DNA of 11,460 nt from a virus, in the IMG/VR virus record IMGVR_UViG_3300035698_002205, positions 1 through 11,460 of that record; one strand, written 5' to 3'. Below, one piece after another: positions 350 to 3,253 of the stretch (within the stretch, counting starts at the first letter, position 1; every line of letters begins with the position of its first letter). Below the pieces are notes generated by a model. That model was not told where the DNA came from, did no database searches, and saw nothing but the letters and a program-made list of their open reading frames with translations. A program made the translations under genes and the position numbers.

Positions 350-723
350 TCTTCCCACCCGTAAACGCTAAAATCCCAACTCGTAGCGGAAGCAGCAGCT
401 ACCACGCTCGTTTCAAATTTCACCGGAGCATCAAACGTGAAAATCTTTTGGTTATTAGCCTCCGCACTCTTCAAACTAATCTTCGTCGTCGCATTATCCT
501 TCAACGTGCCAACAGAAACAGTCGCAGCCTCAACCCAAACGATAAACGACTTCAAATAAAAAGTCTTACCAGCAGTCACCGTAAAAATAGTTACATTCCC
601 GTCGCCAACGCTTACGCCCGTGACAGTCCCATCTTTAACCTCACTCCCCTCCTGATTCCAACGCTCTCTAAGCAAACCAGTATCCTGCTGCAAACCACCC
701 CTATCAAACAAATTCACCACCAT
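346..723 (-). CDS. Hypothetical 125-aa protein, apparently beta-rich; possible virion component
   Basis: ORF track. The ATG at 723 overlaps the nuclease gene end by 10 nt. No recognisable motif. Confidence 0.75.
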   Translation of the reverse strand: MVVNLFDRGGLQQDTGLLRERWNQEGSEVKDGTVTGVSVGDGNVTIFTVTAGKTFYLKSFIVWVEAATVSVGTLKDNATTKISLKSAEANNQKIFTFDAPVKFETSVVAAASATSWDFSVYGWEE

Positions 724-1169
724 TGATTACCCCGAAAGTAAAAACTACTTTCTGGAACCTCCCCTTCTTTTTTGGCGCCGAAAGCCGCGGCCAAGCCAAG
801 ATACACCTCTTCCTGTCCAATATCCAAGCCGGAATAAAACACTCGCCCCAAGAGCCGACCGTACTTTCCGACACGATTCATTGAATCGACGAGCACCTGC
901 ACTTCTTGACCCAATATTTTTTGTTTCAACCATTCTCTTGTCTCCTCACCACCCTCGGACAATTCCGGAGCGTCAATGTCAAGCAGCCTGAGCGGGAAGT
1001 CAAAATCCCGCCATCCAACCCTGAGGGTGACCGTGTCACCATCATGCACCTTCACCACCTCAGCGGTGAAATCCTCGGTTATTTGCACGTGCGGGGACGT
1101 GAACTGCAACTCCTCAAGCTGACGATTAGTCAACTCAGGGAACGCGTCGTAATCGTGCTCGAAAGCCAT
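714..1169 (-). CDS. Staphylococcal (micrococcal) nuclease-like thermonuclease, about 151 aa
   Basis: VVKVHDGDTVTLRV...LRLLDIDAPE...GEETREWLKQKILGQEVQV...DKYGRLLGRVF matches the SNase OB-fold signature (DGDT ... R..GIDAPE ... D.YGR.L). I trimmed the start to the ATG at 1169, which follows GAGGAGGAGG. The track start at 1232 is a TTG with no SD. Confidence 0.8.
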   Translation of the reverse strand: MAFEHDYDAFPELTNRQLEELQFTSPHVQITEDFTAEVVKVHDGDTVTLRVGWRDFDFPLRLLDIDAPELSEGGEETREWLKQKILGQEVQVLVDSMNRVGKYGRLLGRVFYSGLDIGQEEVYLGLAAAFGAKKEGEVPESSFYFRGNQWW

Positions 1170-1621: not shown

Positions 1622-1665
1622 CTTTAAGCTCTTTTATGGAGTAAATAGTATAAAAATGTTTGTAT
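1622..1665 (-). promoter_or_regulatory. AT-rich gap with a TATA-like box (minus sense ATACAAACATTTTTATACTATTTACTCCATAAAAGAGCTTAAAG then ATG)
   Basis: This is one of the few non-overlapping gaps in the genome. TTTATA lies about 30 nt upstream of an ATG that has no SD. It shares the 12-mer AAACATTTTTAT with the region upstream of the tRNA-like gene. Confidence 0.4.
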
Positions 1666-3083: not shown

Positions 3084-3195
3084 TGTCGGCGGCAGGATTC
3101 GAACCTGCAACATATCCTTTCAACGGATGCGGTCAATATTAAACCGTGGACACATCAACCTAGTAATCGCGGCTTTCCTCTCCGCCCTCGCCAAC
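3084..3195 (-). tRNA. tRNA-like gene, 112 nt. The acceptor stem and T-arm are canonical, but the body is about 40 nt too long, suggesting an intron or insertion, or a non-canonical tRNA-like RNA.
   Basis: Minus sense: GTTGGCG AG GGCG GAGAGGAA AGCC G ...40 nt... CATCC GUUGAAA GGAUA UGUU GCAGG UUCGAAU CCUGC CGCCGAC A. The acceptor has 7 bp (one U-G pair). The T-loop is a perfect UUCGAAU. The D-loop has GG at positions 18/19. CCA is not encoded. Confidence 0.45.
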
Positions 3196-3214
3196 TTTTG
3201 CAATAAAAATGTTT
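3196..3214 (-). promoter_or_regulatory. AAACATTTTTAT motif immediately upstream of the tRNA-like gene
   Basis: The 12-mer at 3203..3214 is identical to 1650..1661. It ends only 7 nt before the proposed tRNA 5' end. Confidence 0.3.
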
Positions 3215-3253
3215 CGACCCCAGGCTATACCCACCAACCACAACCAATCAACA

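Follow-up and report, generated by a model that had tools for sequence, protein, structure and literature searches.

A family of tRNA-shaped RNAs with covarying acceptor helices in tailed viruses with archaeal-type promoters

On the minus strand of a small viral genome, two segments resembling the halves of a tRNA together span 112 nt, raising the question of whether they delimit a single RNA gene and, if so, whether the surplus nucleotides between them are an intron or part of the RNA. The window, as we call the whole stretch of DNA analyzed, is a complete 11,460-bp viral record with direct terminal repeats. Its recognizable genes, encoding a portal, a decoration protein, a major capsid protein, a LamG-type protein, TerL (2904-1666), and an SNase-type nuclease, all lie on the minus strand, as do all window features described below. 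On one side of the element is a GC-rich hairpin island; on the other is an ORF of 54 aa (3065-2901), which overlaps the start of TerL and whose own start was set by homology to relatives (M..DYELTLKEL). An initial annotation of the sequence had offered three options for this locus: a tRNA gene with an intron at a non-canonical position, a degenerate or att-derived tRNA, or the tRNA-like 3' module of a larger RNA originating in the GC-rich island.

All structural parts that the annotation had ascribed to the element (a perfect T arm, a 7-bp acceptor stem, a discriminator A, and a D arm with G18 and G19) were present between 3195 and 3084, a measured span of 112 nt in which CCA is not encoded. 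The 5' strand of the acceptor helix, GUUGGCG (3195-3189), pairs 7/7 with 3091-3085, with one U.G among the pairs, joining the two ends of the element, and the discriminator A follows at 3084. Immediately after the 5' strand is a 20-nt block that we refer to as the hallmark (3188-3169), composed of AG, one unpaired G, and a D-type hairpin (3185-3169) with a 4-bp stem and a purine-rich 9-nt loop whose GG falls at sequential positions 18-19; three linker nucleotides separate the acceptor strand from the D stem. At the opposite end, UU and the T arm occupy 3110-3092, with the T arm itself (3108-3092) having a 5-bp stem and the canonical 7-nt loop UUCGAAU. The intervening variable body (3168-3111) contains what had been described as surplus together with an anticodon-type hairpin. 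Both body hairpins were located as annotated, a 5-bp hairpin with a 7-nt loop at 3146-3130 and the 4-bp anticodon-type hairpin at 3128-3114 with UGA at the anticodon position and G32, and an alternative 6-bp helix within the body is possible (3153-3148 with 3117-3112). The annotated second near-match to the acceptor 5' strand was likewise found at 3159-3153, where it complements the 3' acceptor strand at 6/7 positions with an A.C mismatch; other upstream complements to the 3' acceptor strand are also present in two of the further copies described below (L107 and L104). The RNAfold centroid retained the end helix, both small hairpins, and the T arm, and the z-score of the element overall was only -1.5.

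Standard detectors did not report this element as a tRNA gene. ARAGORN, run on the window in default mode, with intron detection, and in tmRNA mode, called no gene at default thresholds, and its parses of the window at lowered thresholds were mutually inconsistent. No Rfam model matched the window at gathering thresholds, and at E <= 10 the only match was a sub-threshold tRNA, with no ribozyme, RNase P, YrlA, or tmRNA; neither ARAGORN nor Rfam found in the window a tmRNA, that is, a tRNA-like domain with a tag reading frame. The Rfam tRNA model (RF00005) scored 25.5 bits against a cut-off of 29 and aligned only with the 3' 68 nt (3151-3084), with two acceptor mismatches and positions 8-9 absent. 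Matches to named phages by megablast and blastn were no longer than the T arm. Judged by the features of tRNAs, the element has the 7-bp acceptor helix and the 5-bp T stem with a canonical T loop and lacks U8, A14, a two-nucleotide connector, and a conserved anticodon arm (7-nt loop, U33, and R37).

A similar frame was found directly past the TerL stop of a relative (L010, the same contig as L104), and the heptamer AGGGCGG right after the acceptor strand is common to the window and this contig. A first scan of IMG/VR with the heptamer plus the T arm as query gave 17 matches, four of which (L104, L107, L110, and L112) showed 7/7 acceptor pairing while the remaining 13 paired at 0-5 of 7 positions. 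A second scan used only an 18-nt D-arm block and was therefore blind to the acceptor and T arm; five of its seven matches (L107, L110, L112, L121, and L122) carried, where expected, a T arm and an acceptor helix with 7/7 pairing, and the other two were GC-rich chance matches in coding sequence. A mismatch-tolerant scan of the five scan-2 records revealed a second copy in L110 in the opposite orientation (L110b, the first being L110a). With membership defined as the hallmark following a 7-nt strand that pairs 7/7 past the T stem, these scans yielded seven further copies in six other viral contigs, for a total of eight copies in seven contigs. The copies are 112, 114, 119, 120, 120, 133, 147, and 206 nt long, or approximately 112-147 nt once an insertion in the longest, L122, is removed. 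L104 is the only one of the six other carrier contigs that belongs to the TerL-defined group of tiny viruses that includes the window.

The final covariation test was based on an alignment of all eight sequences (A5), which together with alignment A4 places the window element in the family. Helix cells in A5 were paired in 99.2% of cases, compared with 32-48% when partners were slid by 1-3 columns. The acceptor helices differ among all copies yet pair 7/7 in every one (100% of cells); both partners change at each of the seven acceptor pairs, which show three to four pair types each except for pair 7, with two. Compensation was also seen at one pair of the D stem (G-C to A-U) and at one pair of the T stem (A-U to U-A, in L104), and none of 500 shuffles reached the observed A5 covariation values. 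Because three acceptor helices carry G.U pairs that would be A.C mismatches if read on the other strand, the structure can be assigned to the tRNA-sense strand. These findings demonstrate that viruses with archaeal-type promoters carry a family of tRNA-shaped RNAs that is conserved and covaries, and they substantiate the annotation's view that the two canonical ends form one tRNA-like gene, as the acceptor pairing recurs in compensated form in seven further members. A chance match or an isolated pseudogene is excluded on the same grounds.

The hallmark, that is, the AG and D-hairpin block of 20 nt, is identical in six copies (the window, L107, L110a, L112, L121, and L122); the L110b D hairpin has one compensated change (A11-U27), and the L104 hairpin is a variant. 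Five copies (the window, L107, L110a, L112, and, without its T-loop insertion, L122) have an identical T arm, which differs by one to three bases in L104, L110b, and L121, with L110b and L121 both having the T loop UUCAAAU and an altered terminal stem pair (G.U in L110b and a U.U mismatch in L121). The discriminator is A in seven of eight members and U in L121. In both alignments, A8, a paired G14, and the 3-nt connector are invariant and U8 and A14 are absent; G19 is present in all eight copies, and A15 and G18 are present in the seven with a standard D loop (all except L104). Every copy also has a helix whose 3' strand ends 2-5 nt ahead of the T stem, followed by ..UU. Since the D hairpin, the UU, and the T arm are kept, a D-/T-loop elbow and an A15:U48-type pair can form and would be a structural consequence of the kept letters in the family RNAs. 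The resulting pattern, in which acceptor letters vary freely while D and T arm sequences are almost frozen, is unusual and separates what the family keeps (the shape of the end helix and the sequence of the D and T arms) from what is free (the letters of the helix and the entire body). Considering these results together, we favor with moderate confidence the interpretation that the window element is a real gene for a tRNA-shaped non-coding RNA, one of a small family in tailed viruses with archaeal-type promoters, and that the RNA is a non-decoding tRNA mimic.

Assignment of these promoters, and of a host, relied on the relatives of the window's virus. The TerL alignment A2 provided 80 further contigs, mostly of 10-12 kb, for a set of 81 genomes with the window (~710 kb). 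ARAGORN, with and without introns, found no tRNA in the 80 relatives, and none of them has a canonical T arm, making that of the window the sole one among the 81 genomes; another is present in the relative L010/L104, which lies outside this set. In the closest relatives (TerL 71-76% identical), the small ORF is kept and unrelated sequence occupies the site of the element. Its absence from the 80 other genomes indicates that the element is accessory and dispensable in the window's virus family. Across the 81 genomes, the spacing between TATA-like heptamers and the first ATG of a long ORF peaked sharply at 29-32 nt, with 105 cases in the peak in comparison to two to nine at each neighboring distance, and the peak cases span 77 distinct N-termini from several gene families. 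Most of the boxes are TTTAAATA or TTTATATA with a (c)gAAAg-type BRE in front, and an SD is absent. BRE/TATA spacing with leaderless mRNAs is the archaeal promoter geometry. On the basis of this geometry and the leaderless ATGs, the host of the window's virus is very probably an archaeon. The best named TerL relative, Halogranum tailed virus 1, is only 30% identical, which is weak but consistent with an archaeal host.

A BRE/TATA-like box of this kind (CGAAAC + ATTTTTATT, 3216-3202), belonging to the small-ORF/TerL operon, ends 6 nt (GCAAAA, 3201-3196) ahead of the window element and occupies the same alignment column in relatives without the element; the upstream ...ATTTTTAT box is kept in the closest relatives except L025-L027. 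Given the TATA-to-ATG spacing of 29-32 nt in the virus family, transcription from this box is predicted to start at 3180-3177, inside the D loop, and transcription of the 5' acceptor strand would then require read-through from upstream past a T5 run, which should hinder it. This arrangement also speaks against the proposal that the element is the 3' module of an RNA from the GC-rich island, as the island is separated from the element by the BRE/TATA box and the T5 run. Additional evidence against that proposal is that the L104 copy lies just past the TerL stop and not, like the island, ahead of TerL, that the L110, L121, and L122 copies stand among tRNA-shaped genes, and that the L112 copy is upstream of a tRNA cluster.

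Across the family, TerL is near the element in five of the seven contigs. The element is upstream of TerL in the window, 70 nt upstream in L121, and further upstream in L112; in L104 it is just downstream of the TerL stop and ahead of the next promoter, and in L122 it is between TerL and portal genes. TerL is also the only protein common to the carrier contigs, and no partner protein co-occurs with the element. tRNAs or tRNA-shaped genes flank the element in L110, L121, and L122, and a three-tRNA cluster lies downstream in L112, where the element and an 87-nt tRNA ~560 nt downstream of it (39.8 bits in Rfam) have the same acceptor helix and T arm. Leaders before the 5' end of the element are A/U-rich (...AAU|G), like those of the bona fide tRNAs in L112 and L121, and T runs terminate the L121 and L110b copies. 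In the window, L107, and L112, GGAGG follows 3-11 nt past the 3' end and precedes an ORF; in the window, this SD (3080-3076) begins 3 nt past the element.

The proximity to TerL could be explained if the element were mainly cis-acting punctuation of the terminase transcript, with a tRNA-like fold that recruits RNase P and RNase Z and sets mRNA ends, or that stabilizes the 5' UTR, without a role as a free RNA. Plant mitochondrial t-elements are tRNA-like folds that set mRNA ends in this way. The adjoining TerL units, the closely spaced GGAGG in three copies, and the L104 copy lying between the TerL stop and the next promoter all fit such a function, and t-elements are documented as processing signals (PMC1920247). 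The present elements resemble t-elements and mascRNA-type signals in placing within or next to an mRNA a tRNA-like fold open to cleavage by RNase P and RNase Z, with an SD close by in three copies. In contrast, half of the present copies behave as independent genes: the L121 element, the L122 element, and both L110 elements stand among tRNA-shaped genes, and those of L121 and L110b are followed by a T-run terminator as expected of an independent RNA gene. Furthermore, the frozen 20-nt D arm and the large variable body exceed what a processing signal or its fold needs, and close relatives do without the element. We therefore consider punctuation unlikely to be the main function, although it is compatible with, and does not exclude, the tRNA mimic.

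To address whether the surplus is an intron, we compared the bodies of all members. The body between the D and T arms is 55-95 nt long, differs in every copy, and cannot be aligned even between L110a and L110b. The arm adjoining the T arm varies in sequence, loop size, and loop letters, and an anticodon loop is not conserved; in L107, position 37 of this loop is C. When searched for antisense matches to their own genomes, the bodies did no better than shuffles, and a motif search of the bodies of members tested yielded nothing recognizable. As separate observations, the short motif ACUAGGUU of the window body also occurs in L107, with AUAGGUU in L121, and the GGUU...GACC hairpin of the window body also occurs in L121. 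The window loop GUUGAAAG, found only in the window among members tested, resembles a crRNA handle; AUUGAAAG is a common archaeal crRNA handle, from which it differs by one base.

Only in one member did we find a clear insertion. L122 (206 nt) contains 90 nt inserted in the T loop past the sixth loop base, and the insertion forms a near-canonical bulge-helix-bulge (BHB) fold with an outer helix of 8 bp, a central helix of 4 Watson-Crick bp, and an inner helix of 7 bp that was matched by 0/200 shuffles. Judging from this fold, the insertion is of the archaeal type, and its removal would be needed to restore the T loop; the RNA without it is still 116 nt. L121 has a strict 3-4-3 BHB-like fold (0/200 shuffles for the strict form) with the T loop taking part in its outer helix. 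For the window, strict and relaxed BHB scans gave a best fold that was equalled or bettered in 60/200 shuffles, and no BHB was present at the 30/68 junction. The BHB search that had been proposed for the window thus gave no significant result there; the same scan recovered L122 and L121. The annotation's suspicion that archaeal biology is relevant was nevertheless borne out by the BRE/TATA boxes and leaderless genes and by the BHB-type T-loop insertion of this one member.

These data bear on the explanation that the element is a decoding tRNA with a non-canonical intron, which an archaeal splicing endonuclease would remove to leave a class-I tRNA of ~72-75 nt with anticodon UGA. In one version of this explanation, an intron of ~37-40 nt separates the D arm from the anticodon stem; in the other, the intron is 40 nt at 9/10. 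The probably archaeal host is in line with splicing, as are the significant BHB-like folds of L122 and L121, which suggest that splicing acts on family RNAs. Deletion of 31-67 creates a 5-bp anticodon stem and a tRNA(UGA) that ARAGORN called even at 105% of its threshold, deletion of 3186-3147 leaves a 72-nt cloverleaf near the Rfam alignment, and a tRNA in L112 has a similar G32-U33-UGA loop. In total, ARAGORN called a tRNA in 214/994 single-deletion variants of the window, including deletion of 31-67 and of the 40 nt at 9/10. However, the same deletion scan still gave calls in 80/100 constructs with the true ends and a shuffled interior, and the calls therefore do not discriminate the true interior from shuffled ones. 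SerRS reads the long variable arm of Ser tRNAs, and a class-I body with a Ser anticodon would lack this arm. Moreover, the invariant part of the family has no U8 or A14 and has a 3-nt connector, the arm adjoining the T arm is not conserved and has a pyrimidine at position 37 in L107, and a hypervariable acceptor with frozen D and T arms is the opposite of what orthologous tRNAs show.

With no significant BHB in the window, uninformative ARAGORN deletions, and long bodies throughout the family, a spliced tRNA is disfavored, and we regard it as quite improbable. The non-canonical intron of the initial annotation fares no better, with a BHB fold equalled in 60/200 shuffles and a family that keeps a 55-95-nt body, L122 retaining 116 nt after removal of its insertion. 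Instead, an unalignable body combined with the invariant A8, paired G14, and 3-nt connector suggests that the body stays in the mature RNA, which would not decode, and argues that the surplus bases belong to the body of the RNA rather than to an intron.

The remaining option, a degenerate or att-derived tRNA, can be judged from its 3' end and from the family. The exact 3' 25-mer of the element occurred in two genomes, both bacterial, of ~185,000 species genomes, and the 3'-end 21-mer occurred in five metagenome contigs with mixed tRNA types. Overall, exact scans with the 25- and 21-mers across viral, genome, and metagenome collections matched unrelated tRNA types or tRNA-shaped genes, and no abundant host tRNA was among the matches in these collections. 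No integrase or recombinase was found in the window with Pfam or PHROGs, which together with the family-wide covariation disfavors an att remnant. We thus find a relic without function highly improbable, be it a host tRNA fragment that was captured or is of the att type or a decaying viral tRNA pseudogene. In favor of a relic, the element is present in only 1 of 81 scanned genomes of the window's virus family, its tRNA scores are below threshold, its promoter geometry suggests that the 5' strand may not be transcribed, and tRNA 3' fragments are common at prokaryotic integration sites (PMC9897764). Against it, six other viral contigs share the architecture with every acceptor pair compensated, the window helices are intact, and the exact 3' end is narrowly distributed.

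For the non-decoding tRNA mimic that we favor, the BHB insertion of L122 and the archaeal promoters suggest that the hosts are probably archaea and that the RNAs probably pass through tRNA processing. In the mechanism we propose, host tRNA enzymes recognizing no more than the acceptor/T-arm minihelix and the elbow would excise the RNA from a longer transcript, with RNase P acting at the 5' end and RNase Z at the 3' end before a CCA-adding enzyme; for the L122 copy, a splicing endonuclease would first take out the T-loop insertion. Expression, RNA ends, and CCA addition of the window element are in this respect predictions from its sequence. The product would be a stable RNA of ~115 nt that is unable to decode, given the missing U8 and A14, the three rather than two linker nucleotides, and the lack of a conserved anticodon arm. 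Our best guess is that this RNA, as a tRNA mimic, may occupy or divert a host factor that binds the acceptor/elbow side of tRNAs, with copy-specific properties coming from the variable body. Excision might also trim the neighboring mRNA; in the window, the new 5' end would then lie 3 nt from the SD of the small-ORF/TerL operon.

Like canonical tRNAs (RF00005), the members of the family have the 7-bp acceptor, the discriminator, G18 G19, and a pyrimidine before the T stem; their T arm carries the universal T-loop letters, and they are found in viral tRNA clusters. They differ in their length of 112-147 nt, in having A8 and a paired G14 instead of U8/A14, and in the three linker nucleotides before the D stem and the 55-95-nt unalignable body. 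Archaeal pre-tRNAs with non-canonical BHB introns (PMC4090602) share the archaeal-type host and the BHB-like folds of L122 and L121, whereas the window and most members have no significant BHB and the surplus persists even once the clear insertion has been taken out.

Phage tRNA clusters have for decades been known to encode oversized look-alikes of tRNAs to which no function is assigned. Among them, we take T4 species 1 RNA (rnaC), a stable, oversized tRNA-shaped RNA encoded among viral tRNA genes, to be comparable to the present family. RNAs of the T4 cluster are presumably matured by tRNA enzymes, and their hosts are bacterial. This likeness is one of description, and the present family differs in that its D arm is frozen in a sequence of its own and its acceptor sequence is free. 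In tmRNA, an acceptor helix and T arm similarly close a large non-tRNA body, but the window body is far too short, G3:U70 is absent, and ARAGORN was negative for tmRNA; to our knowledge, archaea have no tmRNA. YrlA (RF02553), a tRNA-like Y RNA bound by Rsr/Ro60 that occurs in bacteria and some phages, is also an RNA of ~100-120 nt with a tRNA-like D/T module, and in M. smegmatis RNase P cleaves YrlA, to which CCA is also added (PMC4201824). In contrast to YrlA, whose ends form the Ro-binding stem with the tRNA module internal, the ends of the present RNAs form the acceptor helix. Furthermore, the seven members tested contain neither the Ro-binding motif GNCGAAN0-1G nor a C/D box, the window has no RF02553 match at E <= 10, and no TROVE/Ro60 match was seen among the window proteins. 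The family is absent from Rfam 15 and from the literature we looked at and is apparently undescribed; tRNA-like viral RNAs as a kind are already known, YrlA and the RNAs of the T4 cluster being examples.

A broader proposal, which we offer tentatively and consider improbable as it stands, is that viruses encode in these elements effector RNAs of a new class, built on a tRNA scaffold, in which a frozen acceptor/D/T frame would provide maturation and stability via host tRNA enzymes and the hypervariable body would be the working part. Such an effector might be a decoy for tRNA-directed or RNA-guided host defense, to which the closeness of the window loop to the archaeal crRNA handle is a weak pointer, or it might be an RNA cofactor of the packaging machinery, an idea prompted by the usual position of the element next to TerL.

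Regardless of which function applies, tRNA-shaped genes of this kind escape standard tRNA finders and Rfam. As a by-product of this analysis, a large group of 11-12-kb tailed viruses was assigned probable archaeal hosts from promoter evidence. The compact, covariation-supported family described here provides a defined object for testing what tRNA-binding machinery of archaea is exploited by viruses.

The 3' end of the element, a 21- to 25-mer, was also found at the ends of tRNA and tRNA-shaped genes in other contigs. A 136-nt tRNA-shaped gene with an encoded CCA (L013 13895-14030, plus strand) shares its 25-nt 3' end with the window but differs in its D arm, and ARAGORN with introns allowed read it as a tRNA-Lys(UUU) interrupted at 32/33 by an insertion of 54 nt. 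This tRNA-shaped gene is also present in L014, L015, and L022, which, like L013, are phage contigs of 15-46 kb; L014 also encodes RecT, a RecE-like exonuclease, and an endolysin. Two tRNAs from bacterial or metagenome contigs end in the window's 21- to 25-mer as well: a tRNA-Lys(UUU) (L016 2318-2394, plus strand; same region in L018), whose 5' acceptor strand pairs poorly in whatever register, and a tRNA-Leu(CAG) (L021 about 728-817, plus strand), which has a C2 x A71 mismatch within its acceptor helix. These imperfect acceptors are possibly the signature of tRNA 3' ends replaced by integrated elements.

Contigs carrying members of the element family contained further tRNAs and tRNA-shaped genes. 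Two in L110 (1084-1160 and 1297-1410, plus strand) and one in L122 (about 12655-12775, minus strand), about 85-130 nt in length, have ends joined in a 7-bp helix, carry a T arm, and lack the hallmark D arm of the family; none was called by ARAGORN at default settings or by Rfam at gathering thresholds. A tRNA in L121 (5354-5435, plus strand) scored 45.6 bits with Rfam, and ARAGORN reported it as 'tRNA-???'; its anticodon arm forms a closed, palindromic hairpin whose loop has 2 nt. An 87-nt tRNA in L112 (9976-10062, minus strand) is identical in acceptor helix and T arm to the family copy in that contig (10623-10736, minus strand), which suggests that one arose from the other by duplication, that gene conversion took place, or that both must satisfy a common recognition requirement. 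The family member in L122 has a 90-nt T-loop insertion (12449-12538, minus strand) with a near-canonical bulge-helix-bulge fold (outer, central, and inner helices of 8, 4, and 7 bp), and this insertion resembles an archaeal-type intron, located at about 59/60 of a tRNA-like gene of viral origin.

Upstream of the element, we observed a second complement to its 3' acceptor strand (window about 3230-3238, minus strand; 8 bp, two of them G.U), and the L107 copy is preceded by one of 9 Watson-Crick bp (367-375, plus strand). These reflect either an alternative pairing or chance.

BRE/TATA-like boxes precede both the element (3202-3216, minus strand) and a 123-aa gene (ATG 1621; box 1648-1661, minus strand), and both include the 12-mer AAACATTTTTAT. 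The latter position fits a near-leaderless start, and the transcription start predicted from the former falls within the D loop of the element. Across the 81 genomes of the 10- to 12-kb tailed-virus family (including the window and L023-L101), such boxes lie 29-32 nt upstream of the ATG of ORFs without Shine-Dalgarno sequences, with 105 boxes at this spacing serving 77 distinct N-termini. This spacing is that of archaeal promoters driving leaderless mRNAs and therefore points to archaeal hosts for the entire family.
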